A stretch of 31,321 bases of DNA from Bacillota bacterium (GTDB lineage: Bacteria > Bacillota > Clostridia > Christensenellales > Aristaeellaceae), in contig JAGVSV010000303.1 of assembly GCA_019137115.1 (NCBI GenBank), positions 1 to 31,321 of the forward strand, written 5' to 3'. Of this stretch, positions 1,735-30,805 are shown one piece after another (within the stretch, counting starts at the first letter, position 1; every line of letters begins with the position of its first letter). Made by a program: the position numbers and the translations under genes. The notes below the pieces were generated by a model. That model was not told the origin of the DNA. It saw nothing but the letters and a program-made list of their open reading frames with translations, and did no database searches.

Positions 1735-1759
1735 ATGAACCGGCTTGTGCCGGGTTCAT
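1735..1759. other. Stem-loop between permease and SBP gene
   Basis: ATGAACCGGC-TTGT-GCCGGGTTCAT forms a 10-bp stem with one bulge and no U-tract. It may stabilise the downstream SBP message. Confidence 0.35.
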
Positions 1760-2637: not shown

Positions 2638-2646
2638 CCAGCCCTC

Positions 2647-3591: not shown

Positions 3592-3640
3592 GAAACCACC
3601 TTGTACCTTCAGGTATTTGGATGCTCCCGAGAACCAGCGC

Positions 3641-3668
3641 ATTATAGCACCGCACGGGGAAAACGCAA
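3641..3668 (-). promoter_or_regulatory. Sigma-A-type promoter for the permease-permease-SBP operon
   Basis: TTGCGT (3668-3663), 16-nt spacer, TATAAT (3646-3641) with extended -10 TGcTATAAT. Confidence 0.6.
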
Positions 3669-3718
3669 GGACAATATTTGTAAGGAAAATCCCGTTGCGA
3701 CACATCGTGATCCGCAGG

Positions 3719-3746
3719 TTGACACATGCGGCCGAGCGCTTACAAT
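3719..3746 (+). promoter_or_regulatory. Sigma-A-type promoter for the DUF4091 gene
   Basis: TTGACA (3719-3724), 16-nt spacer, TACAAT (3741-3746), 35 nt upstream of the ATG at 3782. Confidence 0.6.
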
Positions 3747-3781
3747 GGCGGGGTAGCATCGGAATGCCCAAAGGAGGAACC

Positions 3782-6718: not shown

Positions 6719-6724
6719 GTCTTG

Positions 6725-8122: not shown

Positions 8123-8148
8123 AGGCGCCTCCTATATATGTGTTGGGT

Positions 8149-9537: not shown

Positions 9538-9575
9538 GGTTTCCTTCCTTTCCCTATATCAGAACAGTTGGTCGC

Positions 9576-10985: not shown

Positions 10986-11013
10986 AACAATCCCTCCTGG
11001 CGTCGAAATGGGG

Positions 11014-12081: not shown

Positions 12082-12142
12082 GTGCCGCGCCTCCGCTTCC
12101 CACCGTTCAAAGGGCAGGCACCCGCCTGCTCCTGCTGTGGCG

Positions 12143-12171
12143 ATGCTACCATGCGCCATGGTGCGTGTCAA
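12143..12171 (-). promoter_or_regulatory. Sigma-A-type promoter of the methyltransferase/GH4 operon
   Basis: TTGACA (12171-12166), 17-nt spacer, TAGCAT (12148-12143). Confidence 0.65.
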
Positions 12172-12227
12172 CGAAATTGGCGTGTCCCGTGCTAGTGTTC
12201 AGGGCTTGTGTATGTTGACTGGGGCAG

Positions 12228-12256: not shown

Positions 12257-12350
12257 GCGCACAAGAGGAAAGGGATGCCAGGTGTTCCGGTGCCACGGTT
12301 TTCGGAGCCTTGTTCCCTGTTCCACGCGCCCAACATAAGGAGGAAAGCAT

Positions 12351-13748
12351 ATGCGGAAAATCCTGGCCCTGGTGCTGTCCCTGATGCTGCTGGCAGGCAT
12401 CATGCCCCTGGCGATGGCGTCCGAACCCGTGGTGGTGACGGTCGCAACCTGGCAAAACTCTGTCCTGATGGCGGAAATGCTGGAGAAGTTCAACGCGGCC
12501 AACCCGGACATCAAGGCCGTGCCCCACGAGCTGAATGGCGGCTGGTTTGCCAATGAGGACCTGGCCAAGCATGCCGCTGCCGGCACCATGCCCGACATCT
12601 TCTCCATCACCACGCCGGAAGTGCCCGTGTCCAACGGCTGGCTGCTGGACCTGACCCCCTACCTGGAAGCGGAAACCGAAAAAACCTGGTATCCCTCCAC
12701 GATCATGAAGTATGACGGCAAAACCTACATGATGCCGTACAGCCTGTTCTTCTACGGCGTGATCGTCAACAAGACGCTGCTCAACGAACTGAACATCCCC
12801 ATCCCCGGCTATGACTGGACGATTGATGAGTTCCTGAGCATCGTCAACGCCGCCTCCACCGGCCAGTACTATGGCGTGAACGGCTCGGACGCGCTGATCA
12901 CCCACATACCGCCGCAGTTGAACCCGGAAACCGGCTGGGCGCTGATCAACAACAACCTGCAGGAGTACAACCTGGACGACGCGTTCATCCAGATGATCAA
13001 CACCACCAAGGACGTGCGCGACAAGAAACAGGCGCTGGACCAGGTGGGTGCAGGCCTGGAAGGCGATGCCTACACGGAAGCAGCCCAGGCCATCCTGGGC
13101 GTGGACTCGGCCTACACCGCGTTCCTGCAGGGCCGCGCCGCGCTGTCGTTTGATTTCTCATGGTCTCTGGGCCTGGACAAAGCGGATGGTTTCGGCGGCT
13201 GGGAGTGGGACTTCTACCCCGTGCCCGTGGCTGAGAAGGGCAACACCGCCCGCACCGGCATCGTGGCCGACGCGGTGGCGGTTCGCGCCACGGTTGCCAA
13301 CCCCGACGCCGCCTGGAAGGTCGTCAAATACCTGACCTACAGCGAGCAGGGCTTCATGGACAAGGTGGAAATCGCCAAGGCGTACAACAAGGAAGCCGCC
13401 ATGGCCAAGTACCCGAACCTGAACCCTGACGCGTTCTGGGATTACATCAACCTGAATGACCTGCCGGGCTGCTTCACGGCCAATGCCCTGCAGGCCTGGA
13501 GCGAAATCAACGAAGTCAAGCCTGGCGTCGCCCATGCCATCGCTGGCATGGCCAACGGCTACCTGGACGGCTTCAAGTGCGTGCCCGGCTGGGGCCCCTC
13601 TCAGTGGGACATCCTGTGGCCGGAGATCACCAACGAGCTCCTGACCGGCAAGAAAGCCGCCGCGGACGTCGCGGTGGAGCTGAAAGCCAAATGCGACGCG
13701 GCCATCGTCGAAGCCTACAAGGCGATGGGGATTGACCTGGCCAAATAA
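12351..13748 (+). CDS. Sugar ABC solute-binding protein
   Basis: AAGGAGG RBS; 465 aa; signal peptide ending AMA-S. Motifs EKFNAANPDIKAV, AAGTMPDIF, WLLDLTPY, YMMPY...VNKTLLNELNIP and NPDAAWKVVKYL. Confidence 0.9.
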   Translation: MRKILALVLSLMLLAGIMPLAMASEPVVVTVATWQNSVLMAEMLEKFNAANPDIKAVPHELNGGWFANEDLAKHAAAGTMPDIFSITTPEVPVSNGWLLDLTPYLEAETEKTWYPSTIMKYDGKTYMMPYSLFFYGVIVNKTLLNELNIPIPGYDWTIDEFLSIVNAASTGQYYGVNGSDALITHIPPQLNPETGWALINNNLQEYNLDDAFIQMINTTKDVRDKKQALDQVGAGLEGDAYTEAAQAILGVDSAYTAFLQGRAALSFDFSWSLGLDKADGFGGWEWDFYPVPVAEKGNTARTGIVADAVAVRATVANPDAAWKVVKYLTYSEQGFMDKVEIAKAYNKEAAMAKYPNLNPDAFWDYINLNDLPGCFTANALQAWSEINEVKPGVAHAIAGMANGYLDGFKCVPGWGPSQWDILWPEITNELLTGKKAAADVAVELKAKCDAAIVEAYKAMGIDLAK

Positions 13749-13754
13749 CACACA

Positions 13755-13786
13755 AGGGGCTGCGCGGCCGAGGCTGTGCAGCCCCT
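13755..13786 (+). other. GC-rich stem-loop after the SBP gene (likely mRNA stabiliser or partial terminator)
   Basis: AGGGGCTGCGCGGC-CGAG-GCTGTGCAGCCCCT forms a 14-bp stem including two G-U pairs, with no immediate U-tract. Confidence 0.6.
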
Positions 13787-13841
13787 GCCCTTTCGAGCGT
13801 GTACATCATGTGAAGCCCGAATACGGAAAGGATGGGGTGCC

Positions 13842-16736
13842 ATGCGGCTGGTGAAGTGCCTGTGCCTGGCGATGCTGTTGTTGCTTGCTGTGCCTGCCGT
13901 GGCCCAGGAAGCAGAGCCGCGCTATTTCTCCTTTCTGGATGAGATCGCCGCCAACCCGGGCGCGGGCTCGCACACCGTCACCGCGGATCGTTTTATCGCG
14001 GCCCAAGGCACCCTTCACGATAGCCTGCACGACTATGCCCTGCCTGTTGTTTCGCTTGGACCTCGCACCGAGGTGACAGTGCCGGTCACGGTAGACCAGG
14101 AAGGCTGGTACCAGATCTCGGTGGACTACTACCTGCCGGAGCCCGGGATCAACGAAGCGTACCTGTCCGTGCGCGTCAACGGCGAGTTTCCCTTCTATGA
14201 GGCGCGCAACGCGCCGCTGTATGCCATATGGGAAGATGAAAGCCGTGACTACGCCCACGATTCCTACGGCAACGAATTGCCCGCCAACCCCGTCCCTGTC
14301 AGGAAGTGGCAGACAACGGTGCTCAACAGCGAGTCGTTTGCGCTGTCGCAGGGGCTCTTCTTCCCCTTGCGCGCCGGCGAGAACACCATCACATTAACCA
14401 CCAACAACCTGCCGGTGGATCTGGGCATGGTGACGGTTGCCGTCCTGCCCCAGCCCCCCGCCTATGATGCTTACCGCGCCCAGGTCGCTGCGCAGCCCGC
14501 GCCGCAGGATGCGCTCGTGACCGTGCAGGGCGAGCATTATGCCAGCAAAAACCATTCCTATACCTTTGCCTACAGTTCGTCAAACCCCAACCTCACGCCC
14601 TATGTGGCCGGCCGCCGGATGATCAACTCGCTTTCGTGGGGCTCCTGGTATGCGCCGGGTGAGGGCGTAACCTATCAGTTTGAAGTGCCGGCGGACGGCG
14701 ATTACCAGATCACCTTCAAATCCACCCAGCCCAGCAAAAACGATTTTCCGGTGTTCAAGCAGATTTTTCTGGATGGCGGCACCCCGTTTGCCCAGATGGA
14801 AGCCGCCACCTTCCCCTATACAGGCGAGGACCGCTTCGTCAACACCACTTTATCCGCCGACGGGCAGCCCGCGCTGTTTTCCTTGACCAAGGGCACGCAC
14901 ACGCTGACGCTGATGTCCACCGCCCAGCCGGTGTACGGCTGGTACGGGCGGCTGCTGGACGTGATGGGCAGCATGACGGACACCGCACTTGAGATCCGCA
15001 TGATATCCGGCGGCAGCGTGGACCGCCACCGTGACTGGGCCATTGAGGAATACATGCCCGGGATCGCCGACAGGCTCAACGCCCAGGCCGACGAGCTGGA
15101 AGCCATCCTTAATGGTTTGCGCGCCTTTTCCGAGGTGGAGCCAGCGCTGCTGGCGCCCGTGCGGGTTAGCGTCACGCGGCTGCGCGATTTCTCCCAGGAT
15201 CCCGACAAACTGGTGAATTCATTGGCCGTGTATTCCGAGGGCAGCAGTTCCTTCGCAGGACAGATCGCCACGCTGCTCACCGATATGCTGCACCAGAACA
15301 TGGGCATCGACTGCCTGTACATCCATACGCCGCAAGCCGTGCTGCCCCAGCCCATGCTGGCGTTCGGGCCGGCAGCGGCCGAGGCGGTCAAAAGCTTCTT
15401 CTATTCGTTCGGCGAGCGCAGCAGCGCCGACCAGCAGCAAAGCGAGGAAGGCGTGCTCAACATATGGATGGGCCGCAACATCAACTATGTCGAGCAGCTG
15501 CGCACATTTATCGATCAGGAGTTCACGCCCAGAACGGGCATCCGCGTGCAGCTTTCCTCCATGCCCGATGAGGCCAAACTGCTGCTGGCGGTGTCGGCCG
15601 GCCTGGGGCCTGACGTGGTGCTAAGCGGCAGCAACTTCAGGCCGTTTGACTTTGCACTGCGCGGCGCGCTGCTGGACCTTAGGCAGTTTGATGATTTCGG
15701 TGAGTTCATCAAGGTGTTCAACTCGGAAACCCTGGTGCCCTATGTCATCAACGATGCCTGTTACGGCCTGCCGGAAACGCTCAGCTTCCAGGCGTTGTTC
15801 TACCGCAAGGATGTGCTGGCCAAGCTTGGCCTTTCGGTGCCCGAAACCTGGGATGAAGTAACCGCCATGCTGCCCACGCTGGAACGCTACGGCATGAGCT
15901 TTGGCACCCAGCTGGCTTCGGCAGGCTCGTTCAAGCACTTCGGCGTGACGATCCCCTTCATCCAACAGTTTGGCGGCAAAATCTACGCCGATGACGGCTC
16001 CCGCGTGGAGCTGGGCGACCCCAGAACATTGCAGGCCTTCCAGCTGATGACCGACCTGTATACGAAATACTCCCTGCCGCAGACCATCGCGTCCTTCTAC
16101 GCCAGCTTCCGCTATGGCACCATGCCCATCGGCATGTCAGGTTCCGACACATACATCCTCTTGCGTGAGGCCGCGCCGGAGCTGGCCGAGCAATGGGCCA
16201 TCGCGCCCTGCGTGGGGGTCAGGGACGAAAGCGGTCAGGTGCGCCGGTACCAGATGGCATCGTCCACCAGCTGCTTTATCATGGGCAACACCGACATGCC
16301 GGATGAGGCATGGGCGTTGATGAAATGGTGGTTGTCCACCGAAACCCAGGCCAAGTTCGGCCAGACGGTGCGCCTGGTGTATGGCCCGGAATTCCTGTGG
16401 AACACGGCCAACCTGGAAGCCTTCCGCCTGGGCTCCGGCTATGACGAGGACGCGCTGGCCGTGATCACCGAACAGTTTGCCCAAATCAAGGAAATCCCGC
16501 GCAACCCGGCCTATTTCTCGGTGGAGCGCGAGCTGTCCAACGCGTGGAACAAGGTGGTGCTGCAGGGGCAGCCGTACAGAACCGCCATCGATGCCGCCAT
16601 CACGCAGTCCAACCGCGTGATCGCCCGCAAACTCAAGGAGTTTGGCTACATGGACGAAGCCGGGCAGATGGTCAGGCCCTTTGTCCCGGTGGACGGCAGC
16701 ATCATTGACGGATGGAAGGAGGCAGTCAAACCATGA
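13842..16736 (+). CDS. Large multidomain extracellular solute-binding protein (N-terminal beta-sandwich/CBM-like modules plus C-terminal SBP)
   Basis: ATG 13842; 964 aa; signal peptide ending AVA-Q. Two segments of the type [15 protein letters not shown] and [14 protein letters not shown] look like CBM sandwiches. The C-terminal SBP region contains [29 protein letters not shown]...LFYRKDVL and VPETWDEV. Confidence 0.82.
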
Positions 16737-17662
16737 GCAAAGCCCTCCCGCGCGCGGTGCCCGCCGTACCCATGGAGAAGCGCCGCCGCGACCACTCCAT
16801 CCCGGTGATGCTTTCGCCGTATGCCCTGATCTTTGTTTACTTTGTGGGGCTGCCCATTCTGGTGGCCATCTTCCTGAGCTTCACCTACTTTAACACTGTA
16901 CAGCGGCCGTACCTGATCGGGTTTTCCAACTACATCAGCATCCTCACCCAGGATACGGTGTTCCTGCGCAATGTGTTGCCCAATACGCTCAAGTTCGCGA
17001 TCCTGGTCGGCCCCATGGGCTATGTGCTGCAGTTCCTTTTGGCCTGGGTGTTAACCCAGGTGCCCAAATGGCCGCGCACGATATTGTCCCTGCTGTTCTA
17101 TTCCCCTTCCATCACGGCGGGTGTGGCCATGTCGGTGATATGGAAAATCGTGTTCAGCGGCGACCAGCTGGGATACCTCAACCACCTGCTGATGAACTGG
17201 AACCTGATCAGTGAGCCCATCCAGTTCCTGACCTCGCCCGAATACCTGATGCCCATCATGGTGGTGGTCACCCTGTGGGCAGGCATGGGCATTGGCTTTC
17301 TAGCCATGATGAGCGGCATCCTCAACATTGACCCGGAGCTGTTTGAAGCAGGCTACATCGACGGCGTGCGCAACCGCTTCCAGGAGATCATCTATGTGAC
17401 GGTGCCCTCCATGAAGCCGCAGATGCTCTTTGGCGCTGTGATGGCCATCGTGACGGCCTTCTCGGCGGGCTCCATCGGCGTGGAACTGACCGGCACCAAC
17501 CCCACGCCGCAGTACGCAGGGCAGCTGATGGTCAACCACATTGAGGATTACGGCATCCTGCAATATGACATGGGCTACGCCGCGGCGCTGTCGGTGATCC
17601 TTCTGATCATCATCGCGGTGTTCAGCCGTGTGGCCAACCGACTGTTCGCAGAACGCGACTGA
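16733..17662 (+). CDS. Carbohydrate ABC permease (MalF-like)
   Basis: ATGA overlap with the upstream stop, AAGGAGG RBS, EAA loop [10 protein letters not shown] and C-terminal [11 protein letters not shown]. Confidence 0.9.
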
Positions 17663-17675
17663 CAGGCAGGCAGAT

Positions 17676-18587
17676 ATGGCAAAACGACGGGAAAAAGTCA
17701 TCCGGGTCAAGCGCAAGCGCTTGCCCACCAGCATGGTCAACCCCAAACGGTTTGACAAGAGCCAGCTGAAATTTTATGTGCTCCTCATCCCGCTGGCGCT
17801 GTTTTCCTCACTGCCCATCGTGTACCTGATCTCGACCGCATTTAAACCCATGGACGAGTTGTTTGCCTATCCCCCGCGGTTCCTGGTGTACCGCCCCACG
17901 ATGGAAAACTTCCAGGATATCATGCACATGATGACACGCGGCGGCGTGCCTTTCTCGCGGTACCTGTTCAACTCGCTGCTCTCCTCGGCACTTGTGGTGC
18001 TTGCCACGCTGTACATATCGCTGAATGCGGCGTATGTGCTGTCCAAAAAGCGCTTCCGCGGCAAGAACACCCTGTTTGCGCTGAACACGGCGGCGCTGAT
18101 GTTTGTGCCGGCGGCGGTCAAGATCCCCAGGTACCTGCTGGTGCAGCAGGCGGGGCTTCTGAACACCTTTATGGCGCTGGTGCTGCCGATGCTCGCCATG
18201 CCGGTGGGCCTGTTCCTGATCAAGCAGAACATGGACCAGGTGCCCGACAGCCTGATTGAGGCCGCGCGCATTGACGGTGCCAAGGAATACAGGGTGCTTT
18301 ACCAGATCGTGGCGCCGGTGATCAAACCAGCGCTGGTCACGGTGGCCATCCTTGCCTTCCAGTCCGCGTGGAACAACGCGGAGTACTCACAGCTGTACAT
18401 CAACGATGACTCGATCAAGACCTTTGCCTTCTACATGTCCTCGCTGACCAGCTCGGTGGGCAACACGGTGGCCGGCCAGGGCATGGCGGCCGCGGGGTCG
18501 CTGATCCTGTTCCTGCCCAACCTGATCATCTTCATCCTGATGCAAAGCAAAGTGGTCAACACGATGGCCAACTCGGGCATCAAGTAA
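17676..18587 (+). CDS. Carbohydrate ABC permease (MalG-like)
   Basis: ATG 17676. Motifs AFKPMDELFAYPPRF, RYLFNS, EAA loop SLIEAARIDGA and FQSAWNN. Confidence 0.9.
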   Translation: MAKRREKVIRVKRKRLPTSMVNPKRFDKSQLKFYVLLIPLALFSSLPIVYLISTAFKPMDELFAYPPRFLVYRPTMENFQDIMHMMTRGGVPFSRYLFNSLLSSALVVLATLYISLNAAYVLSKKRFRGKNTLFALNTAALMFVPAAVKIPRYLLVQQAGLLNTFMALVLPMLAMPVGLFLIKQNMDQVPDSLIEAARIDGAKEYRVLYQIVAPVIKPALVTVAILAFQSAWNNAEYSQLYINDDSIKTFAFYMSSLTSSVGNTVAGQGMAAAGSLILFLPNLIIFILMQSKVVNTMANSGIK

Positions 18588-18600
18588 GGAGGGAGCCAGC

Positions 18601-20622
18601 ATGTTCAAACGCGCCGCCGCGCTGCTGCTTGCGCTGCTCGTGCTTGCCCCTGTGTCTGTACTGGCCGCGCAAACCGCCTCCACGGGCTACACCATCAACA
18701 TCGGCGTGGACGGCCGGCCGCAACTGACGCAAGATGCCTACCTGCCCACCAGGCTGTTCATGGATCTGGGCTTAAGGGGCCCCAAGGATCTGTTCATCAA
18801 GGATGACATCCTTTATGTCGCCGACAGCGGCAACGGCCGCGTGCTGCGCATTCCGCTTGATACGCTTGAGGTGGAGATCATCGGCGCGGGCCTTCTGCGC
18901 AACCCGACAGGCGTTGCCGCCGATGAGGACGGGCGCATCTATGTGGCGGACTATACCGCCCGCAAAGCCTACCGCTTTGCCCGCGACGGTTCGCTGGAGA
19001 TGACCTTTGAAAAGCCCGAAGCTGCCAGTTTCGGCCGCAACAGCAGTTACATCCCGCTCAAGGTCGCGCCGGGTGATGGCGGAGGCCTGTATCTGGTGAA
19101 CGAGGGCTCGGTCGCCGGCATCGTGCAGATGAGCGGCGAGGGTGATTTCCTGGGCTATTTCGCGGCCAACACCGTCACCATGAGCCTGAGCGACCTTTTG
19201 CGCAGCATCTTCCTCACCGAGGAGCAGCAGCGCTTCTCCATGGCGCGCACGCCGCCCGCTTTTGCCAACATATTCCGCGGCGATGACCGGCTGATCTACA
19301 CCATCAACCGCGGCGAGAACGTGGCAATCAAGAAGCATGCCATCAGCGGCGCCAACCTGCTGGATGATGCCAACGCAAGGATCCTGCTGGACAACCCGGT
19401 GGACCTTGCCGTTGCGCCGGACGGGCGGATGCTGGCCGTGTACACCGATGGCACCGTGGGTGAATACACCGCGGACGGCTACTTCATCTGCCTGTTCGCG
19501 GGCCCCGGCAACCGCACCGACCGCATCGGGCTGTTTGACGCGCCTGCGGGCATCGGGGTGGACAGCCGCAACAACATCTATGTGCTGGATGAGCGCCGGC
19601 AAGCCATCCAGGTGTTTGCCCCCACCCCGGCGCAGGACAGCCTGTACCGCGCGATGACCCATTACAACAACGGCGCGTACGATGACAGCATCGCCTCGCT
19701 TGAGCAGGTGGTGAAGTACAACGACACGTCGTACCTGGCGCACCTGCTGCTGGGGCGCAACTACCTGCAGAAGAACGACTACCATGCCGCGGAAAAGGAG
19801 TTCCGTACGGCGGGCGACCGCGCGTACTTCTCCCAGGCTTACTGGGAAACGCGCAACCTGTGGCTGCAGAACAACACCGGCTGGATTCTGGCCGTCGTGC
19901 TGGTGGTGTTCCTTGTCTGGCTGGGGCTGGGCGTCATACGCCGGTTCAGGCCCGGCTTCCTCACGCGCAAGGGCAACGCAGAACGCAGCCAGCCCCGCCT
20001 GGTGCACGACCTTTTGCAGGTCGGGTACGCGGTGCGGCACCCCATCGACAACTACTACAACGTGCGCGTCGGCCTGACAGGTTCGGCCCTTGCGGCCACG
20101 GTGCTGTACGTGCTGGCGTTCGTCCTGCTGGTGCTGTTCCAGGTCGCGCGCGGCTTTATTTTCTCGGTGGATGTCAGCCGTTATTCGCTGTTCTATACCG
20201 CGGTGTATTTCTTCGGCATCCTCGCGTTGTTCCTGGCGGGCAACTTCTTCATCAGTTCCATCAACGACGGCGACGGAACCTTCCGGCAGATCTATATCGG
20301 CTCGGCCTACGCCCTGGCGCCTGTGTTCCTGATCCTGCCGCCTGTGATCCTGCTGTCCAATGTCCTGTCGCTGGATGAAAGCTTTTTCGTGCAGGCCGCG
20401 ATGGTGTTCATGCTGGCATGGACGCTGGTGACGGTCTATCTCATGGTGATGCAGATCCATGACTATTCCTTCAAGGAGGGCACGGCCAGCCTGCTGATGA
20501 CGCTGTTTTTCATGGTGGTGGCAATCCTGGTGGGTTCGCTGGTGTTCCTGCTGCTCAAGCAGGTGGTGGTGTTTGTGCAGGATGCTGTGACGGAGGTGGT
20601 GCTGCGTGTCCGGCTGCGTTAA
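18601..20622 (+). CDS. Secreted NHL-repeat beta-propeller, TPR-like segment, transmembrane helix and Yip1-like domain in one protein
   Basis: AAGGAGG RBS, signal peptide, 673 aa. NHL-like repeats LRGPKDLFI, LRNPTGVAADEDGRIYVAD, LDNPVDLAV and FDAPAGIGVDSRNNIYVLD. TPR-like YLAHLLLGRNYLQKNDY, a TM helix near residue 425, then HPIDNYY and about five hydrophobic helices with IYIGSAYALAP and IHDYS. Confidence 0.75.
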   Translation: MFKRAAALLLALLVLAPVSVLAAQTASTGYTINIGVDGRPQLTQDAYLPTRLFMDLGLRGPKDLFIKDDILYVADSGNGRVLRIPLDTLEVEIIGAGLLRNPTGVAADEDGRIYVADYTARKAYRFARDGSLEMTFEKPEAASFGRNSSYIPLKVAPGDGGGLYLVNEGSVAGIVQMSGEGDFLGYFAANTVTMSLSDLLRSIFLTEEQQRFSMARTPPAFANIFRGDDRLIYTINRGENVAIKKHAISGANLLDDANARILLDNPVDLAVAPDGRMLAVYTDGTVGEYTADGYFICLFAGPGNRTDRIGLFDAPAGIGVDSRNNIYVLDERRQAIQVFAPTPAQDSLYRAMTHYNNGAYDDSIASLEQVVKYNDTSYLAHLLLGRNYLQKNDYHAAEKEFRTAGDRAYFSQAYWETRNLWLQNNTGWILAVVLVVFLVWLGLGVIRRFRPGFLTRKGNAERSQPRLVHDLLQVGYAVRHPIDNYYNVRVGLTGSALAATVLYVLAFVLLVLFQVARGFIFSVDVSRYSLFYTAVYFFGILALFLAGNFFISSINDGDGTFRQIYIGSAYALAPVFLILPPVILLSNVLSLDESFFVQAAMVFMLAWTLVTVYLMVMQIHDYSFKEGTASLLMTLFFMVVAILVGSLVFLLLKQVVVFVQDAVTEVVLRVRLR

Positions 20623-23041
20623 AAAGTTTGTGTGCGTGCTCGCCGTCGCGCTGGCGCTGCCTGTCATAGGATGGGCGGAGGCGGCCCCTGCGGCCACGCC
20701 CAACCTGTTCAACATGCTGTTGCCTGCCACCGCCACGCCTGAGCCCGCGCCCGCCGCCACGCCCAACCTGTTTGACATGCTCAAGGGCACACAAGCGCCT
20801 GCGGCGGAAACCGCCGCGCCCGGCACGCCCAATTTGTTTGACATGCTCAAGGGCACGCCCGCCCCGGCAGGCGCCACCACAGCGCCCCCGGCGCCTACCG
20901 TGGTGCCTACGCCTGCCATCGCGGTGGCGCGTGACACACTTGCGCTGCGGGCCGATCTGCCTGCACAGCCAGTGCAGAACGGCGCGAAGCTGACGGATTC
21001 CGACCGCCTTGTAGCCGAAAACGCCCGTGTGCGTCTGTATGTGGACGAAGCCGCGTGTTCCTTCAAGGTGGAGGATGTCAGCAACGGCTACCTATTCGCC
21101 TCGTCCCCCGCTCCGGAGCGGCTGACGGCCCTGAACCGCGAGTGGCAGAATATGGCGTCCTCCATCGTGGTGGCGGAAAGCCTGAATGCCTCGGGCACGG
21201 CATCGCGCGCTTTCTACATGGCAGACAATGCGGATGCGCCGGTCTTCACGTATGCTTCGGACGGTTTCTCGGTCGCGCTGCACTTCCCCGCGGCGCAGGT
21301 ACGCCTGACCGTGCATGTCAGCCTGACGGCATCGGGCTTTGCCATCTCCATTCCGCATGACAGCATCATCGAGGATGGCGGCATGTACCTAAGCCGCGTC
21401 CTGGTGCTACCGTTCTTTGGCGCGGCGGAAGGCGATACCATCCCCGGCTATACGCTGATCCCCGATGGCAGCGGCGCGCTGATGCGCTTTGAAAAGCCCG
21501 CCAACTATCTGGCCGCGTTTACAGGACGCGTTTATGGACAGGACTATGGCACGCGCAGGCCGAGCGCGCGCGCAAGCATGCGCTGGGCGGGCGTGACCGA
21601 CCTGAACCTGCCGCTGTTCGGCATGGCGCACGGCCCGGATTGGTCAGCGTACCTGGCGCTGTGCACCCAGGGCGAGGCATTCATGCAGATTGAGGCATCC
21701 CCCGCCGGGGTGATGACGCAGTTCCACCGCGCGTACGCCGCGTTCATATACCGCGAATCCTACAGCCAGCCCACCGGCCGCTCCAGCGCCAGTTTCCTTG
21801 CCATTCCCCCGCGCACCAATGTGCTGGATGTAACCATGGAGTATGTGCTGCTCAGCGGCGAAGAAGCCAACTACTCCGGCATGGCGAGTGTCTACCGCCA
21901 GCGCCTGATCGACCAGGGCATCCTTGCAAAACAACAGGACAGCGAGGTGCCGCTGCTGCTGCGGGTGCTGATGGCGGAAACGGAAAAGGGTGTGGTCGGC
22001 ATGTCGCGGCTGGTCATGACCACCTTGGAGCAAGCCCAGGGCTTTGTGGACACGCTTCGGGCAGGCGGCGTCAGGCGGGTGGATACGGCCCTGTCCGGCT
22101 ACGCGCGGGGCGGTCTGTCGGCACAGAAACTGGGCAACCCCGCGTTGGACAACGCGCTGGGCAGCCGCGAAGCGTTCGACAAACTGGCCACGTCTGTGTC
22201 GCAGCAGGGGCAGGCATACCTTGAAACCGCCATGGTCACAGGCTTTGACGGCCAGGTGGACCGCGCCGGCCTTGCCTACAATGTGGACGGCGGCCTGATC
22301 ACGCTGGACATGCCGGACAAGCCGCTGTTTACCAAACAATCCTTCCAAAACCTTCAGTACGTGCAGCAGACCCTGGCCGCCCTTCCCGGCGCGCCGATCG
22401 CCCTGCGCGACATCGGCAACCAGCTGCATTCCGACCACCGGGAGAACCGCGTACAGCCCCGCGCGGCCGTGATGCTGGGGTACGCCGAAGTGCTGCGGCA
22501 GCTGAATGACCGCGCGCAGGTGGCGCTGTTCACACCGTACGCGTATGCATTCGGCGGCATGGACGCGGCCATGGAAGCGCCGATGAAAAACTCCCAGTTC
22601 TCGTATGAGACCGACACCGTGCCCTTCTACCAGATGGTGCTCTCCGGCTGCGCGGATGTGTTTACCACGCCGCTGAACTACGGCAGCGGCACCGCGCGCG
22701 AGGCGCTGCAGCTGATTGATTACAACGTAAGCCCCGCCTACCTGGTGACCTACAAAGGTGCGGGTGACCTGCGCATGAGCAACACGACCGATCTGTACTC
22801 GTCCCGTTTCACGGACTGGCAGGACGACATGCTGGCGGTGTACCAGCGCGTGTACGAGCCGCTGCGCGCCGTGCGCGGCGCCAGCGTCATCAGCCGCCGT
22901 GTGCCCTTGGACGGGCTGGTGAAGCTGGGCTATGACAACGGCGTGGTGCTGTATGTCAACTATACCGCGTCGCCGCAGACGCTGGACGGTTTGACCATCG
23001 CCCCGGAATCCGCCGTACTGGGAAAGGAGGTCGAGCAGTGA
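20606..23041 (+). CDS. DUF5696-like secreted protein (possible glycoside-hydrolase-like fold)
   Basis: GTG start overlapping the upstream gene by 17 nt; 811 aa; signal peptide and Pro/Ala/Thr-rich repeat linker. Motifs VLPFFGAA, GYTLIPDGSGALMRF, LPLFGM and VPFYQMVLSG, and its position between NHL/Yip1 and permease genes, fit DUF5696. Confidence 0.7.
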   Translation: MSGCVKKFVCVLAVALALPVIGWAEAAPAATPNLFNMLLPATATPEPAPAATPNLFDMLKGTQAPAAETAAPGTPNLFDMLKGTPAPAGATTAPPAPTVVPTPAIAVARDTLALRADLPAQPVQNGAKLTDSDRLVAENARVRLYVDEAACSFKVEDVSNGYLFASSPAPERLTALNREWQNMASSIVVAESLNASGTASRAFYMADNADAPVFTYASDGFSVALHFPAAQVRLTVHVSLTASGFAISIPHDSIIEDGGMYLSRVLVLPFFGAAEGDTIPGYTLIPDGSGALMRFEKPANYLAAFTGRVYGQDYGTRRPSARASMRWAGVTDLNLPLFGMAHGPDWSAYLALCTQGEAFMQIEASPAGVMTQFHRAYAAFIYRESYSQPTGRSSASFLAIPPRTNVLDVTMEYVLLSGEEANYSGMASVYRQRLIDQGILAKQQDSEVPLLLRVLMAETEKGVVGMSRLVMTTLEQAQGFVDTLRAGGVRRVDTALSGYARGGLSAQKLGNPALDNALGSREAFDKLATSVSQQGQAYLETAMVTGFDGQVDRAGLAYNVDGGLITLDMPDKPLFTKQSFQNLQYVQQTLAALPGAPIALRDIGNQLHSDHRENRVQPRAAVMLGYAEVLRQLNDRAQVALFTPYAYAFGGMDAAMEAPMKNSQFSYETDTVPFYQMVLSGCADVFTTPLNYGSGTAREALQLIDYNVSPAYLVTYKGAGDLRMSNTTDLYSSRFTDWQDDMLAVYQRVYEPLRAVRGASVISRRVPLDGLVKLGYDNGVVLYVNYTASPQTLDGLTIAPESAVLGKEVEQ
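20696..20856 (+). repeat. Three in-frame repeats encoding TPNLF(N/D)ML, period 63 and 66 nt
   Basis: Copies start at 20696, 20759 and 20825. Copies 2 and 3 match at 30 of 32 nt and both differences are synonymous (AAC CTG vs AAT TTG). Confidence 0.9.
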
Positions 23042-23931
23042 GCGCGTTTCTGCGCCGCCATCAAAGGCAGCTGGCAGGGCTACTGTTCGTCACGCCCTGG
23101 ATCATAGGCTTCGCCATCTTCACAGCCTATCCGCTGGTCACATCGGTGGTATACAGCTTCAGCCGCGTGACCTTCCCGCTGGACGGCATCATGCTGGAGC
23201 CCGTTGGGGTGGCCAACTACACCAACGTGCTGATGAGCGACCCGGATTTCAAACTGGCGCTGAGCACGTACCTCACCCAGCTGGTGTGCTATGTGCCCAT
23301 GATCCTTGTGTTTTCCTGCATGCTGGCGCTATTGCTCAACAGCCCCATCCGCCTGCGCAAGCTGGTGCGCGCCATCTTTTTCCTGCCTGTCATCATTGTG
23401 TCAGGCCCCGTGCTGGCCAGCCTGAGCCAGATGGGTGCGGCGGTGCTGCTGGGCCTTGAGGACTTCCCGGTGTATGAGTTCATCCACCGCTTTGTGCCGC
23501 CGGCGGTGGCCATGCCCATCCTGTATGTGTTTGATAACGCGGTGCTGATCCTGTGGTTTTGCGGTGTGCCGATCCTGATCTTCCTGTCGGGCCTGCAGAA
23601 GATGGACCGCAGCATGTACGAAGCCGCCATGGTGGACGGCGCGTCCGCCTGGCAGAAGTTCTGGAAACTGACCATCCCCACGCTCAAGCCCTTCTTCTTC
23701 CTCAACGGCGTGTTCAGCGTGGTGGAGATCTCCATGAGCACGCAAAACCCCATCATCAAACTGATCAAGGACGGCTTGTTCCAGATCACGCGCGGGTTCG
23801 GCTTTTCGGCCGCCGTGACGATGCTGTACTTCCTGATTATCCTGGTGTCCGTGCTGATCCTGTATGTGCTCTTTGGCCGCGAAAAGCGCGACATTGTTGC
23901 GGCGCAGCCCCGAAGGGCGGTGAAGTCATGA
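23038..23931 (+). CDS. Carbohydrate ABC permease (MalF-like)
   Basis: GTGA overlap, AAAGGAGG RBS, LFVTPWIIGF, RAIFFLPVII and EAA loop SMYEAAMVDGASAWQKFW. Confidence 0.9.
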   Translation: MSAFLRRHQRQLAGLLFVTPWIIGFAIFTAYPLVTSVVYSFSRVTFPLDGIMLEPVGVANYTNVLMSDPDFKLALSTYLTQLVCYVPMILVFSCMLALLLNSPIRLRKLVRAIFFLPVIIVSGPVLASLSQMGAAVLLGLEDFPVYEFIHRFVPPAVAMPILYVFDNAVLILWFCGVPILIFLSGLQKMDRSMYEAAMVDGASAWQKFWKLTIPTLKPFFFLNGVFSVVEISMSTQNPIIKLIKDGLFQITRGFGFSAAVTMLYFLIILVSVLILYVLFGREKRDIVAAQPRRAVKS

Positions 23932-24869
23932 ACCGCATTATCCCGGAACGCACGCTGGGCCGCGCCAGGCATGTGCTGCTGGGTACCAGGGAGAAAACAG
24001 GGCTGCTCACGCACCTTGTGCTGTTTGTCCTGACCATCGGATTGTGCTATGTGTTCGTGTCGCCGCTGCTGACCATGCTGTCCATGGGCCTTAAGGACGG
24101 CAAGGACCTGAACAACCCCCTGGTCAACTGGTTCCCCACCAAGTTGTACACAGGCAACTTTGACCGCGCCTGGGTGGTCATGGGCGGCTGGAACACGGTG
24201 ATCACCTCCGGCTCCATGTTCCTGATCATTGCCGCCGTGCAAACCTTTTCCTCCGCGGTGATCGCATACGGTTTTGCCAAATCCGAGTTCCCCGGGCGAA
24301 AGCTCCTCTTCGCGCTGATGATCGCCACCTTCGTCATCCCCGATCAGGTGACCTTCATGCCCAGGTACCTGATGTTCCGCGAATACGGCATGCTGCGCAC
24401 CTACCTGCCGCTGCTGCTGCCCGCGGCGCTGGGCAACGGCATACGCAACGCCATCTTCATCCTGATCTTCTACCAATTCTTCCGCATGATGCCCAAAGCG
24501 CTGGACGAAGCGGCGATGGTGGACGGCGCGGGCTACCTGCGCGTGTTCTTTACGGTGAGCATCCCGCTGGCGGTGCCCGCCATCGTGGTGGTGTTCATCT
24601 TCTCGTTCGTATGGCACTGGAACGAAACGTTCCTGACGGATCTGTACTTTGGCAACGCCATCGGCACCATGCCACTGCTGCTGGAACGTTTTACCGACAA
24701 CTACACCAAGATATTCCCGCCCAATGTGGACAACCCCATGGCGGTGCTCAACGAGGGCATCCGCATGGCGGCCACGCTGATCACGGTGCTGCCGTTGCTG
24801 GTGATGTACATCCTGGTGGAGCGCAAGCTGATCGAGAGCCTGGACCGCACCGGCATCACAGGCGAATAG
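23928..24869 (+). CDS. Carbohydrate ABC permease (MalG-like)
   Basis: ATGA overlap, start MNRIIPERT; AYGFAKSEFPGRK, EAA loop ALDEAAMVDGAG and FVWHWNE. Confidence 0.9.
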   Translation: MNRIIPERTLGRARHVLLGTREKTGLLTHLVLFVLTIGLCYVFVSPLLTMLSMGLKDGKDLNNPLVNWFPTKLYTGNFDRAWVVMGGWNTVITSGSMFLIIAAVQTFSSAVIAYGFAKSEFPGRKLLFALMIATFVIPDQVTFMPRYLMFREYGMLRTYLPLLLPAALGNGIRNAIFILIFYQFFRMMPKALDEAAMVDGAGYLRVFFTVSIPLAVPAIVVVFIFSFVWHWNETFLTDLYFGNAIGTMPLLLERFTDNYTKIFPPNVDNPMAVLNEGIRMAATLITVLPLLVMYILVERKLIESLDRTGITGE

Positions 24870-24884: not shown

Positions 24885-24930
24885 AACCGGAGGGGCTGCA
24901 TTTCGCGTATGCGGCCCCTCCGGTTCTTTT
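24885..24930. terminator. Intrinsic terminator between convergent operons, probably bidirectional
   Basis: AACCGGAGGGGCTGCAT-TTCGCGT-ATGCGGCCCCTCCGGTT forms a 17-bp stem with one G-U pair, followed by CTTTT and preceded by an A-rich tract. Confidence 0.85.
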
Positions 24931-24952: not shown

Positions 24953-27900
24953 TCAGCCTTCCTGGTAGATCGGGAAGGTCACCTGGATGTTCCGGACCTC
25001 GCCCAGCGCCGGGGCGGGCACGGTGATGCCGCCTGACCGGTACGCCTGCGTGTTGCGCTCGCCAACTTCCCTGTTGTTGATGCTGACGGCCAGCCTGTCC
25101 CCAGCTGTAAACCTTATGGTGCGGCGCGCGCCGTGCATGCTCAGGGTCAGCGCCATGCCGTCGGCCTCCTTGGGCAGTACGGGGTCAAACACCACGCCAT
25201 GCTTGGTTACCGCCACGCCCAGCACATGCGCCAGCAGCTGCCGGATGAAGATGCCGGGGCCGCTGGAATACAGCCTCCACCCGCCCTTGACGCCGATGCT
25301 GCCATTCCGTAAGCGGCCAAACCCATCGGCAAAGGCGTACCTGTCCGGGAAGTCGCCTTCGCTGCTGGAAAAGTACAGGTTGCTTTGCCTGGGCAATGCG
25401 TTGGGCACGCGGTCGGTAAGCAGCGGCATGGCCACGGTCAACAGTCCCTTGAGCGTCCTGTCATTGCGGCCGATTTTCGCCATGGCTTCCACATAGCGGA
25501 TGTGCGCGTGCACATACTGCAGGGATATTTCGCGGCCGACATTGGCCGCCTGCTCGGCGCGCTGGAACATGCGGCTGACCCCGCCCATGTAGCGCGCCGG
25601 CGCGTCCATCAGGCGTACGCCATCGGGGCAGGCCAGCCTGCTGTCGATCACATCCAGGCTACGCTGCGCCTGTTGCGGCGATGAAAGCCCGGCAATCATG
25701 GCGCGGGTCATGGGCAGCAAACGCGCGGTGATGCCTGTCACCTTGTCGCGCGGGTGCAGCAGGTATTGGTTCTCGCCATCCTCGTTTTTCAGCAGGAACC
25801 CCGCGATTACGCCATCCTTGGTGAGCAGTTCGGGGAAGTCGCGTTCGATCCTGGCCGCATACGCTCGCGCCTCATCAACAATGGGCAGCGGCAGCCTTGC
25901 CAGCGCGGACAAAGTCTGATAGCACAATGCCACCGTCCAGGCGCTGACAAGGTGTTCCTTCATGCGCTCCTGCGCGGGCTGCAGCGTGTCATCCCAGTCG
26001 CCGCCGGCATAGGTGACAAGGCTGGTGTCGCCGATGAAACGCGATTGGATTTCCTCAAAGGCCCTGCGCACATGCTCCCGGATGGGTTCGGCAGGTCGCT
26101 CAAACGCATAGGGGGCAACGGCATCCAGTATGCCGGTATCGCCGGTGGTTTCCACATAATCGCACAGCGCTTTCAGCGGCCAGAACACCACATCGCCGTG
26201 GCAATCCCCCGCCGCATACGGGAAGCGGTCAAACATGAACCATTGCGGCCATTCCGACGCACCCTGGTGGCTGAACACCGTCAGAAGGATGGCCCGGCAC
26301 AGCGGGAAGTGGCCCAGCGTCAGGAAGAACTCGAACGGCCCTTGGCACACATCGCGCGTGCCCCACGCCGCGCCGCCTGGCTGCTCCAGCCCGTGAGGCA
26401 TGGCGTAGTGCGTCAGCGCGCACTGCGCATGCCAGTTCAGGGTGTGCGTAAGCACCGAGCCCGCATTGCCCATGCCCTGCAGCGCAAACCCGCGCGTGAG
26501 CTTGCGCATGTAGTCTTGCACCAACCGGCGTTCCTCGACAGGGTCGGGCAGAGACGGCGCGCGCACGGGCGCATCGGCGAGGCTGCCGGAATAGACAACC
26601 GCGAAACCGCCGGTGTGCTGCATGGTTAGGAATGTCTTGTGGCGCGCCTTGCCGTCCTCATAGAACACGCCGTCATCGGCAAGTTTTGCGCCTGCGGGCA
26701 ACGTGATGTCAAAGTGCGCGCCCTCATAGTACGGCGAGTTGAGCATCACGCGCTGCACACGGCCGCGCCTGAGAGAACGGGTTTCCACGGGCAGGGTGTA
26801 CTCATGCTCGCCGGCCACCAGCTGCTGGGTGAGCAGGTAATCATACGCGCGGCCCTTGTGGCTGTGCACCTGAAGGGTCATGGTGGGCTGGTGGGCGCTG
26901 GCAAACAGCGTCACGGTCACAAGGTCATCGCCCAGCACATAGTGCCACGCGGCATGCGAAAAGCCCGTTTCGTACAGCGCAGGCAAGGTCAGCAGGCGGT
27001 ACTGCCCTTCGATGCGCACATACAGCCGTTGCCCGCTGTTGGTCATGATGTTCAGAAGCCCCCGCGCCGCCGAATGCAGTTTGTGGAAACTGGTGTTGCC
27101 CATCACGGTTTGCGAGCCAAACACGCCATACATGTAATGCGTGGAGCCCAACAGTGCGGCGTCCACGCGGGAGAGCTTGGTGCAGGTCTGGATGATGCCG
27201 CCATGCGGGCGGAAACAAGCCAGTTCCTTGCCTCGGGTGACTACATGCGTGCTGTCGGCAAGAAAGAACGACCACAGCGCGCCGTCCGGCCCGTGTTCGG
27301 CAAGTTCGCGCGCGGGGTACATAAGCGCGATGTCATCCTCCGTCATGGCAGGTGACGCATAGGGCGCACCAAACCCCGCGGAGCGCTGTACCGATGGCAT
27401 GGGTGCGGTTGGCTCCTCAAACGGGAAGGCGAGCGTCGTGATCGCCGTCGGCATGTGCCCGGCATCCGAGACCCCGGCTTCCTCGTTCTCACTCAGCCAC
27501 GCATAGAAAGCGAGATGCTTTTTCTTCTTCTCGATATGGAACTGCTGTGTTTGCAGCGCGATGTAGGAAAACTCCTGTTGGTTGACCCTGGACGGCAGGT
27601 TGCCCAGCAGCTTCTCGGGCACTCGATCCGCCTTGTAGGAAAGGCCGAAGAAATCCACGCCGTCGGTGGCAAACGCTGTGGTCTTGACCCCCAGCGAGCC
27701 CTGCGTCAGCACGGGGAAACCGGTACTTTGGCGCTGGTTCTGCCGGGAACGGATCACATGCCCCGCGTATGCCTCAAACACGCTGTGCCCCAGGTACTGC
27801 GCCATGTACAGCTCGTTGGTCAGCACGCCGCCGCGGTCCGCCACACCGATGTCCTGTCCGTAGATCATGTCATAGGTGCCGGCGTCGCCGTTTAGGGCAA

Positions 27901-28228
27901 TCTGCCACACCCATGCCCCCGGCGCGCAGAGGATGAAACGTACGGTATACTGCGCGCCCAGCGCCTGGCCCTCATACAGCACGCTGTTTTCCCCCATGGA
28001 CCAGCGCGAACCACTGGTCACGCCCAGCAGGGGTACTGCCTGAACATGCTCACCCTCATGACGGCGCAACCACAGCTGGTTGGCGGCACCGTCCCGGCAG
28101 TTCCCGCACAGGCCGTTGAGCATTAGCCCCTTGTGCTGGATGGAGAAAATGTCCCCCGTGTCCAGAAAGTGAACCTGCGTGTCACCCTTGGTGAATGTAT
28201 GCAGCGTGGGCATGGCGTTGCGCTTCAT
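24953..28228 (-). CDS. GH94 glycoside phosphorylase, 1,2-beta-oligoglucan phosphorylase-like
   Basis: AAGGAGG RBS and ATG 28228; 1091 aa. Motifs HGLEQPGGAAWGTRDVCQGP, QWFMFD, DCHGDVVFWPLK, GDWDDTLQP, HLVSAWTVAL, AANVGREISLQYVHAHIRY and GWRLYSSGPG, plus the length, match my recollection of the SOGP subfamily. Confidence 0.85.
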   Translation of the reverse strand: MKRNAMPTLHTFTKGDTQVHFLDTGDIFSIQHKGLMLNGLCGNCRDGAANQLWLRRHEGEHVQAVPLLGVTSGSRWSMGENSVLYEGQALGAQYTVRFILCAPGAWVWQIALNGDAGTYDMIYGQDIGVADRGGVLTNELYMAQYLGHSVFEAYAGHVIRSRQNQRQSTGFPVLTQGSLGVKTTAFATDGVDFFGLSYKADRVPEKLLGNLPSRVNQQEFSYIALQTQQFHIEKKKKHLAFYAWLSENEEAGVSDAGHMPTAITTLAFPFEEPTAPMPSVQRSAGFGAPYASPAMTEDDIALMYPARELAEHGPDGALWSFFLADSTHVVTRGKELACFRPHGGIIQTCTKLSRVDAALLGSTHYMYGVFGSQTVMGNTSFHKLHSAARGLLNIMTNSGQRLYVRIEGQYRLLTLPALYETGFSHAAWHYVLGDDLVTVTLFASAHQPTMTLQVHSHKGRAYDYLLTQQLVAGEHEYTLPVETRSLRRGRVQRVMLNSPYYEGAHFDITLPAGAKLADDGVFYEDGKARHKTFLTMQHTGGFAVVYSGSLADAPVRAPSLPDPVEERRLVQDYMRKLTRGFALQGMGNAGSVLTHTLNWHAQCALTHYAMPHGLEQPGGAAWGTRDVCQGPFEFFLTLGHFPLCRAILLTVFSHQGASEWPQWFMFDRFPYAAGDCHGDVVFWPLKALCDYVETTGDTGILDAVAPYAFERPAEPIREHVRRAFEEIQSRFIGDTSLVTYAGGDWDDTLQPAQERMKEHLVSAWTVALCYQTLSALARLPLPIVDEARAYAARIERDFPELLTKDGVIAGFLLKNEDGENQYLLHPRDKVTGITARLLPMTRAMIAGLSSPQQAQRSLDVIDSRLACPDGVRLMDAPARYMGGVSRMFQRAEQAANVGREISLQYVHAHIRYVEAMAKIGRNDRTLKGLLTVAMPLLTDRVPNALPRQSNLYFSSSEGDFPDRYAFADGFGRLRNGSIGVKGGWRLYSSGPGIFIRQLLAHVLGVAVTKHGVVFDPVLPKEADGMALTLSMHGARRTIRFTAGDRLAVSINNREVGERNTQAYRSGGITVPAPALGEVRNIQVTFPIYQEG

Positions 28229-28256
28229 GGAGTCCTCCTTGTGTCCGGGTTGATGC

Positions 28257-30647: not shown

Positions 30648-30701
30648 CGGCACGTACCTCCCATGTTGCGGCAGCCAACCCGCCGCCAAATCTTTTGGTC
30701 C

Positions 30702-30710
30702 ATCATAACA
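30702..30710 (-). promoter_or_regulatory. Extended -10 element for the GH35-GH94 operon
   Basis: TGtTATGAT on the minus strand, about 55 nt upstream of the ATG at 30647. No good -35 seen. Confidence 0.45.
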
Positions 30711-30776
30711 CATATTCATCAAACATTGTGTATCTTTTTGCACAAACATGGCAGTGAAGCCCCTGCCCTTCCTGCC

Positions 30777-30805
30777 TTGCACGCGGCAACCGTCCATGCT
30801 ATGAT
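30777..30805 (+). promoter_or_regulatory. Sigma-A-type promoter for the right-hand SBP gene
   Basis: TTGCAC (30777-30782), 17-nt spacer, TATGAT (30800-30805) with an extended TG. Confidence 0.6.

Follow-up and report, generated by a model that had tools for sequence, protein, structure and literature searches.

How do single-membrane bacteria, Gram-positive ones among them, which carry out a major part of complex glycan breakdown in guts, soils and digesters, take up glycans as long chains, a process that is far less understood in them than in Bacteroidota? The question is raised in concrete form by eight genes (g1 to g8) in the stretch of DNA considered here, which we call the window: one complete contig of 31,321 nucleotides (JAGVSV010000303.1) from a 2.27-Mb metagenome-assembled genome of a Bacillota bacterium (GCA_019137115.1) that is 91% complete. 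The eight genes are one operon that is transcribed in nature, and we think it likely that this operon is a β-1,2-glucan uptake system built on a cassette of two CUT1-type importers and two extracytoplasmic accessory proteins, one of them with NHL, TPR and Yip1 domains (g5) and the other a member of family DUF5696 (g6).

All eight genes lie on the forward strand at 12351-24869, co-oriented and mostly overlapping, in the order small solute-binding protein (SBP), giant SBP, two permeases, NHL-TPR-Yip1 protein, DUF5696 protein and two more permeases (coordinates are collected in Table 1). A first-pass annotation made from the letters of the DNA had this gene content and orientation right, although the string in which it arranged the components was not the actual order. 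The overlaps that it quoted are exact: ATGA at 16733, GTGA at 23038, ATGA at 23928 and 17 nt at 20606-20622, so that stop and start codons couple g2 to g3, g5 to g6, g6 to g7 and g7 to g8. Is the operon used? Window DNA was detected in wastewater, digester and manure metagenomes, and one metatranscriptome (X19) could be paired with a DNA run of the same sample. Its RNA contig over g1 and the leader spans 12276-13737 at a depth of 26, which makes g1 the highest-expressed gene of the operon, while g2-g6 have RNA depths of 1-5 and the depth is 0 both at the phosphorylase/GH35 flank and before 11664. Given that the DNA run has an even depth of ~7 throughout, RNA over g1-g6 between silent flanks means that the operon is transcribed in situ. 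For the leader, we found no convincing sigma-70 match on the forward strand. A single contig in another data set (X20) that would join 12514 to 20752 was disregarded, having a side of only 21 nt and being probably a chimeric assembly.

The step in RNA depth coincides with a perfect hairpin 3' of g1, across which the depth falls from ~26 to 1.4-5, about five- to ten-fold, a ratio to be taken as rough because the values are assembler depths from contigs. A several-fold excess of g1 message is what a hairpin that stabilises the transcript, or attenuates it, should produce. The same hairpin bears on where g2 begins: the GTG at 13776 was rejected as a start because it sits within the 3' arm of the hairpin, and g2 therefore probably starts at ATG 13842.

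Is such an arrangement peculiar to this organism? Our locus search was built on DUF5696, a family that comprises 4071 clusters at 50% identity (E <= 0.001), 1550 of them at E <= 1e-30. A 19-sequence alignment (A1) was too diverse and a narrower one (A2) was used for locus finding; the search gave 561 confirmed relatives, the best 80 loci of which were analysed. These 80 come from Bacilli, Clostridia, Chloroflexota and, once, Fervidobacterium, placing the cassette in the phyla Bacillota, Chloroflexota and Thermotogota, and the g1-g8 order is the same in them wherever the contig is long enough. The arrangement is thus far beyond chance. The recurrence that the first-pass annotation had claimed for Firmicutes is real, but it is not confined to them. 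In one genome of the window's class (G080), g1-g8 are 37-69% identical to those of the window, and genes for GH35, GH4, an MTTB-superfamily protein and a conserved protein of ~355 aa adjoin the cassette.

A second, taxonomy-drawn sample of 150 genomes from the window's class, chosen independently of the feature, was used to ask how firmly the two accessory genes are tied to one another. DUF5696 occurred in 47 of the 150, in some with up to five copies, and a g5-like gene stood directly upstream on the same strand of 47 of the 49 full-length DUF5696 genes; the two exceptions were a contig break and a genome with no match at the threshold. It could still be supposed that the two transporters and the accessory pair function independently, with nothing but a promoter in common, and each importer does come with a permease pair and a binding protein of its own, although nothing specific speaks for the idea. 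We find it hardly credible: one gene order holds in three phyla, four junctions overlap, g5 and g6 are paired almost without exception, and the entire block moves together between glycan contexts.

That the cassette holds two importers follows from its permeases and binding proteins. Among the marks of the CUT1 group, a family 1 binding protein (g1 and g2) and a MalF/MalG-like permease pair were found, the latter twice. The EAA coupling loop, which is the docking site for the ATPase, is kept in all four permeases, including g7, which scores under the Pfam cut-off. Identity between the pairs is 24% for g3/g7 and 30% for g4/g8, so they are two distinct heterodimers and, as their sequences suggest, both are apparently functional membrane dimers. 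A six-frame search of the 31-kb contig turned up no Walker A or LSGGQ motif, and the window accordingly has no ABC ATPase, as the first-pass annotation had reported. Its idea of a shared MsmX/MalK ATPase fits the genome, in which a protein of this type with ABC_tran, OB_MalK and TOBE_2 domains is encoded on another contig (C22); this ATPase would be shared by both permease pairs.

What, then, is imported? Convergent with g8 lies a gene for a 1,2-β-oligoglucan phosphorylase (SOGP, family GH94), a full-length match to the enzyme of Lachnoclostridium phytofermentans (5H3Z, E 1.9e-286), and beside it a gene for a GH35 protein whose top PDB match, over residues 59-744, is 7VKW, the β-1,2-glucosyltransferase IALB_1185 (E 8.6e-62), and whose activity as a β-1,2-glucosyltransferase is predicted. 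The window thus has the phosphorylase expected of a β-1,2-glucan locus and, in the predicted GH35 enzyme, a candidate for disposing of sophorose. Similar company is kept elsewhere. Clustering of the flanks of the 80 loci gave GH144, an endo-β-1,2-glucanase family, at 31, usually directly after g8, the GH35 family of the window at 30, GH94 at 19, GH3 at 18 and LacI regulators at 26, and half of the loci (40/80) have a GH144, GH35, GH94 or GH3 neighbour. A second clade of loci is accompanied by GH43/GH51 arabinan enzymes and a third, mixed clade (clade 3) by GH31, GH3, GH66 and others.

The small binding protein g1 points the same way. It has no Pfam match, its identity as a binding protein coming from PDB and NCBIfam matches, and its top PDB match is 22HH (E 1.1e-18), a structure of Chy400_4166 from Chloroflexus aurantiacus. 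Chy400_4166 binds cyclic β-1,2-glucans of 17-20 units as well as long linear chains, gripping them in mid-chain, with W74, W308 (or Tyr) and D336 recognising the glucose unit designated G (PMC13731917). These three residues are kept in g1, aligning to W34, W271 and D307, while K419 of Chy400_4166 falls outside the alignment. All 30 g1 proteins of β-1,2-glucan-type loci have the W74 equivalent, as does window g1; it is missing in the mixed clade and in the Lachnospiraceae arabinan clade and present in two Bacilli arabinan loci. Proteins in the g1 position of other cassettes match 22HH with E values of 1.5e-216 (L013, Chloroflexota) and 5.5e-101 (L009, Metabacillus). Judged from these alignments, g1 is a member of the Chy400_4166 family, and the expectation of the first-pass annotation that large glycans are imported gains in likelihood from the mid-chain binding of its characterised relative.

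The second binding protein, g2, is more unusual. In the 986-aa reading from GTG 13776, SBP_bac_1 matches residues 574-859 (E 7e-24), and the C-terminal ~420 residues form the SBP domain, the top PDB match of which is Lin1841, a sophoro-oligosaccharide binder of Listeria (5YSB, E 1.4e-18). The N-terminal ~540 aa are without family: their domains had no Pfam match even at E 10, and an Atlas feature search gave unnamed clusters only. An AlphaFold2 model (predicted local distance difference test, pLDDT, 87.7; predicted template modelling score 0.84) divides the protein into two β-sandwiches, a helical bundle and the SBP domain, at residues 40-200, 225-360, 362-483 and 538-960. In the window a lipobox does not account for the retention of either binding protein at the cell surface. 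Window g1 has a signal peptide lacking the lipobox cysteine, although a lipobox is present in 50 of the 53 g1 homologues of loci L002-L081; g2 also has none, and neither have its homologues in the same loci apart from 1 of 72.

Because of the phosphorylase and GH35 neighbours, the family and kept residues of g1, and the match of the g2 SBP domain to Lin1841, β-1,2-glucan is in our judgement the most likely substrate, and we read the window as a divergent β-1,2-glucan version of the cassette. Several observations weigh against this. Window g1 is only distant kin of Chy400_4166 (70 bits, against 723 bits for the L013 protein). The g2 homologue of Chloroflexus failed to bind any polysaccharide that it was tested with, and most of the ligand residues of Lin1841 are not kept in that g2-type protein (PMC13731917). 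GH144 (PF10091) was not found in the 91%-complete genome, in which the newer SGL families were not searched, and without GH144 no enzyme recognised there could open cyclic glucans. In a FastTree phylogeny, the placement in which we do not rely on, the window DUF5696 has a long branch and falls outside the main β-1,2-glucan clade. In the single metatranscriptome in which the operon was on, both the phosphorylase gene and the GH35 gene were silent, and other glycosidase genes (GH123 and GH4) lie upstream of the operon. Finally, the contact of g5 and g6 with the permeases is only proposed.

Could the substrate be another glycan, such as a β-galactoside or an amino-sugar glycan, with the phosphorylase and GH35 genes mere positional neighbours? 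The silence of these two genes would fit, as would their location on the opposite strand past a strong terminator. The GH123, GH4 and MTTB-like genes upstream would fit too, GH4 and MTTB genes being found beside the G080 cassette also, and the window DUF5696 groups loosely with cassettes flanked by GH31, GH3 or GH66. Against this, the top match of the GH35 protein is a β-1,2-glucosyltransferase and not a galactosidase, and the same GH35 family stands beside the cassette in L085, in G080 and in 30 other loci. In addition, g1 keeps the tryptophan that marks β-1,2-glucan-type loci and the phosphorylase match is near-orthologous. We regard a different glycan as improbable.

If β-1,2-glucan is indeed the substrate here, what do its parts have in common with those of cassettes that serve other glycans? 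The median identity of window proteins to their relatives falls in a steep gradient, and the values are near-equal whatever the glycan context of the relative: 54-63% for g3, 51-57% for g4, 41-44% for the SBP domain of g2, 36-44% for g7/g8, 27-35% for the domains of g5, 26-29% for the N-terminus of g2, 28-29% for g6 and 24-26% for g1. The same gradient separates the β-1,2-glucan cassette of Metabacillus from the arabinan cassette of Roseburia, between which g3 is 61% and g4 56% identical, whereas ordinary CUT1 permeases encoded in the same window are 24-28% identical to any of g3, g4, g7 and g8. Moreover, loci of the arabinan clade have the small SBP gene directly after g8 and not before g2, a placement that points to g1 as the partner of g7/g8 and to g2 as that of g3/g4. 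Together with the failure of the Chloroflexus g2 homologue to bind the polysaccharides tried, the gradient and this placement suggest a division of labour, in which g1, g7/g8, the N-terminus of g2, the ectodomain of g5 and g6 are substrate-specific while the SBP domain of g2 and g3/g4 form a conserved core whose role or ligand, the data suggest, is independent of the glycan. We know of no precedent for such a division of labour in CUT1 systems.

This leaves the two accessory proteins. Beyond residue 428, g5 has six hydrophobic helices, and its propeller is nearest to NHL structures of the PknD-sensor type. The N-terminus of g6 consists of a hydrophobic segment followed by a 110-aa low-complexity Pro/Thr/Ala linker that carries three TPNLF[ND]ML repeats with Pro/Thr/Ala spacers (window 20690-20860, g6 residues 28-82). 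The repeats are kept as DDLFxILxP in relatives of only 49% identity, and more distant homologues have another short motif (R-H-T-Q or Y-T-Q-P-E) ahead of the folded domain; the TPNLF[ND]ML repeats could dock on the TPR domain of g5. In sequence searches g6 matches PF18952 only and not the GH129 or GH101 models, which co-occur only in distant DUF5696 clusters. Its AlphaFold2 model (pLDDT 78, core >90), on the other hand, matches the GH129 enzymes NagBb and ZgGH129 with a Foldseek E value of 7e-27 and a Z score of 26 over residues 133-811 (VIA: Z 26.6 over residues 133-807), with 550-570 residues aligned at 11-14% identity across all three domains; GH101 comes next at Z 16. On this model DUF5696 has a GH129 fold, that is, three domains with a central (β/α)8 barrel.

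Does the fold imply an enzyme? DUF5696 could be a catalytically active glycosidase at the cell surface, cutting β-1,2-glucans, long or cyclic, to importable pieces and so replacing the missing GH144. Besides the modelled likeness to GH129/GH101 over all three domains, and the predicted export of g6, what recommends this idea is a weak profile alignment (E 3e-9) that puts D602 on the nucleophile D486 of ZgGH129, the position of D610 and E657 at barrel strand ends, and the conservation of acids at 601 and 610 in the β-1,2-glucan clade, where the nucleophile-site motif is A-L-D-[GS]..G...S-D. The family as a whole tells against it. Among 150 DUF5696 representatives an acid was present at 601/602 in 96, at 610 (D/E) in 95 and at 657 (D/E) in 92. 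The nucleophile-position acid is thus kept in no more than about two thirds of relatives, and the family as such does not share a canonical retaining mechanism. The near-invariant polar residues are others: 147 of the same 150 have Asp at D287, which belongs to a P-D-G-x-G loop in the N-terminal domain, and R619 and N691 are conserved in 145 each. The arabinan clade keeps the protein though both acids are lost, its motif being A-L-[AS]-G...S-Y, and in the window and its near relatives the Asp (D602) comes one residue later than the D601 of most relatives. The candidate acid/base, E657 in the window and Asp in most relatives, lies outside the reach of the alignment. GH129 and GH101 furthermore act on α-linked sugars, as their wider structural relatives are known to do, while this glucan is β-linked. 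We therefore consider hydrolysis by DUF5696 doubtful, and the trimming that the first-pass annotation had ascribed to the system stays unproven, the fold notwithstanding. That the residues at the nucleophile position vary with glycan context does suggest that this site contacts the glycan, although a single change on the tree does not amount to a statistical test. A shorter DUF5696-like paralogue of ~570-600 aa (in G103, G084, G142, G132 and others), covering profile positions 190-612 only, has no NHL/Yip1 gene next to it and seems to form a branch of the family that stands by itself.

The alternative is that neither DUF5696 nor the NHL-TPR-Yip1 protein has a catalytic role and that they form a scaffold, or a platform for glycan handling, on which the two transporters are assembled and from which polymer chains are passed on, much as the Yip1-family protein YknW is encoded with, and needed by, an ABC transporter in Bacillus subtilis (YknWXYZ). 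The poor conservation of the canonical acids, the near-obligate pairing of g5 and g6, and the combination of a TPR domain in g5 with LF-motif repeats, a possible docking peptide, in g6 all agree with a scaffold, and pocket residues that vary with glycan context are as expected of a binding site. However, the interaction at its centre is deduced from analogy and sequence, a full three-domain fold of glycosidase type seems costly for a mere scaffold, and D287, R619 and N691 could form a non-canonical active site. The parallel with YknW, moreover, concerns an exporter. We take a non-catalytic platform seriously as a possibility, without going so far as to call it likely.

How might a β-1,2-glucan uptake system of this composition work? 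In the mechanism that we propose, g1 would capture β-1,2-glucan chains and serve the permease pair g7/g8, while g2 would hold the glycan by its variable N-terminal β-sandwiches and dock its conserved SBP domain on g3/g4. The membrane protein g5 would anchor exported g6 beside both transporters, and the two together might present or process long chains. The shared MsmX-type ATPase would drive both permease pairs; in the cytoplasm, the phosphorylase would free glucose 1-phosphate from oligomers of at least 3 units, and GH35 would disproportionate sophorose, so that a β-glucosidase would not be needed. A bolder version can be imagined, namely a single envelope machine for polymer-length glycans in which the g2 SBP domain and g3/g4, blind to the variable sugar, form a common ATP-driven core, and the fast-evolving g1, g2 β-sandwiches, NHL propeller and a non-hydrolytic DUF5696 give specificity and feed whole chains, such as cyclic β-1,2-glucans of 17-20 units, to the second importer. 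We think this rather unlikely, but if true it would give monoderms a counterpart to the Sus utilisome, made of ABC parts.

Around the operon, the divergent gene for the conserved ~355-aa protein appears to be linked to this sub-type of the cassette. The protein has no Pfam, NCBIfam or PDB match; its gene is kept beside the cassette in L085, where GH35 is found too, and in L086. An open reading frame opposite this conserved minus-strand gene (11290-12195, forward strand) was rejected, being without a family match. Further upstream, the minus strand at 5447-11060 encodes a 423-aa protein without a family match, an MTTB-superfamily protein, a GH4 glycosidase and a 494-aa URO-D-like protein. GH4 and MTTB homologues lie next to the G080 cassette too, which again pairs methyltransferase-like (MTTB) proteins with a sugar locus. 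The forward strand at 3554-5422 encodes a protein with a GH123 catalytic domain (E 2.8e-92), overlapped by long minus-strand reading frames without family matches, and at 1307-3783 on the minus strand there is a further CUT1 permease pair with an apparently truncated SBP gene (150 aa, the start of SBP_bac_1 only). A DDE transposase fragment (3-638, minus strand) lies at the contig end.

Table 1. Features of the operon and its immediate flanks, in window coordinates
Feature	Position	Strand	Basis
Divergent gene, conserved protein of ~355 aa	11014..12171	-	Homologues (24-28% identity) beside the cassette in L085, L086 and G080
Operon transcript 5' leader	12276..12350	+	Start of X19 RNA contig
g1, 465-aa secreted solute-binding protein, Chy400_4166 group (predicted)	12351..13748	+	PDB and NCBIfam matches
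Intercistronic hairpin 3' of g1	13755..13786	+	Perfect 14-bp stem, -31.3 kcal/mol, z -4.18
g2, 964-aa giant binding protein	13842..16736	+	Pfam SBP_bac_1; AlphaFold2 model
g3, MalF-type permease, pair 1	16733..17662	+	Pfam BPD_transp_1; EAA-like loop
g4, MalG-type permease, pair 1	17676..18587	+	Pfam BPD_transp_1; EAA loop EAARIDGA
g5, signal peptide, NHL propeller, TPR, one transmembrane helix and Yip1 domain of five transmembrane helices	18601..20622	+	Pfam NHL, TPR, Yip1
g6, DUF5696, predicted exported GH129-fold protein	20606..23041	+	PF18952, E 1.8e-137
g7, MalF-type permease, pair 2	23038..23931	+	Weak Pfam match, 20.8 bits; EAA loop EAAMVDGA
g8, MalG-type permease, pair 2	23928..24869	+	Pfam BPD_transp_1; EAA loop
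Hairpin terminator between convergent g8 and phosphorylase genes	24885..24925	.	17-pair stem, 11 GC pairs, T-rich tail
1,2-β-oligoglucan phosphorylase (GH94, SOGP)	24953..28264	-	Pfam SOGP_N, SOGP_2nd, GH94
GH35 homologue of β-1,2-glucosyltransferase IALB_1185	28257..30797	-	Pfam GH35, GLMA_2nd

What is new here, relative to published work, is a cassette that joins two importers to two accessory proteins and whose small SBP has recently been characterised in another phylum. A full-text literature search found no paper treating the DUF5696/NHL-Yip1 accessory proteins or the logic of the twin importers. The first-pass annotation had called such systems mechanistically uncharacterised, and we likewise found no mechanistic study, but a g1-type orthologue was solved with its ligand in 2026 (PMC13731917). 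Taken as a whole, its observations are confirmed and its interpretation is partly supported. Two of the eight cassette proteins are without a known function, and through the β-1,2-glucan version the cassette is tied to a ligand that is defined and obtainable, and to a binding protein of solved structure; as this version also occurs in cultivable Bacillaceae and Paenibacillaceae, such as Metabacillus idriensis NRS-1149 (L009), Paenibacillus lactis DSM 15596 (L056) and Fictibacillus halophilus (L039), the roles of g5, g6 and the second transporter are directly testable.

The closest known system is the Chy400_4165-4178 cluster of Chloroflexus aurantiacus, with a small SBP of the same family as g1 in which the key residues are those kept here (PDB 22HH-22HL, PMC13731917) and with "two sets of type I ABC transporter genes" beside GH94, GH35, GH3 and GH144 (FEBS J 2026, PMC13731917). 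Judging from the gene count of 4166-4173 (eight genes) and the order in other Chloroflexota loci, this cluster would also include the two accessory genes; we found no mention of NHL in the main text of the paper, which apparently does not address the NHL-Yip1 and DUF5696 genes (PMC13731917). Compared with it, window g1 is very divergent and lacks the lipobox, and neither GH144 nor GH3 is nearby. The Lin1838-1841 system of Listeria innocua, which includes Lin1841 (5YSB) and the phosphorylase Lin1839, likewise has a CUT1 importer adjoining a 1,2-β-oligoglucan phosphorylase, but unlike the window it has a single importer, a binding protein of 400 aa and no NHL-Yip1 or DUF5696 gene.

With CUT1 importers (TC 3.A.1.1) that share an MsmX/MalK ATPase the window has in common family 1 SBPs, MalF/MalG permeases, EAA loops and an ATPase encoded elsewhere. 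Unlike ordinary CUT1 systems, the cassette has two importers in fixed linkage, a binding protein of ~1000 aa, two obligatory accessory genes between the permease pairs, and one permease pair that is 51-63% identical across substrate classes where 24-28% is otherwise seen. DUF5696 is predicted to share with GH129 (NagBb, 5WZN; ZgGH129, 5OPQ) and GH101 the three-domain architecture with a (β/α)8 barrel, but differs from GH129 in that the catalytic acids are not family-wide, in its N-terminal anchor or linker, and in being always encoded inside a transporter operon. YknWXYZ, for its part, is an exporter of another ABC type, and YknW, unlike g5, is not known to have a propeller or TPR ectodomain. 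Last, the first-pass annotation had drawn a loose comparison with the SusCD utilisomes of Bacteroidota. These have no component homologous to the cassette, which lacks the TonB-dependent barrel and belongs to another envelope architecture, but the likeness in role stands: in both, a surface binder, a glycosidase-like protein and a transporter are encoded together and swapped between specificities.

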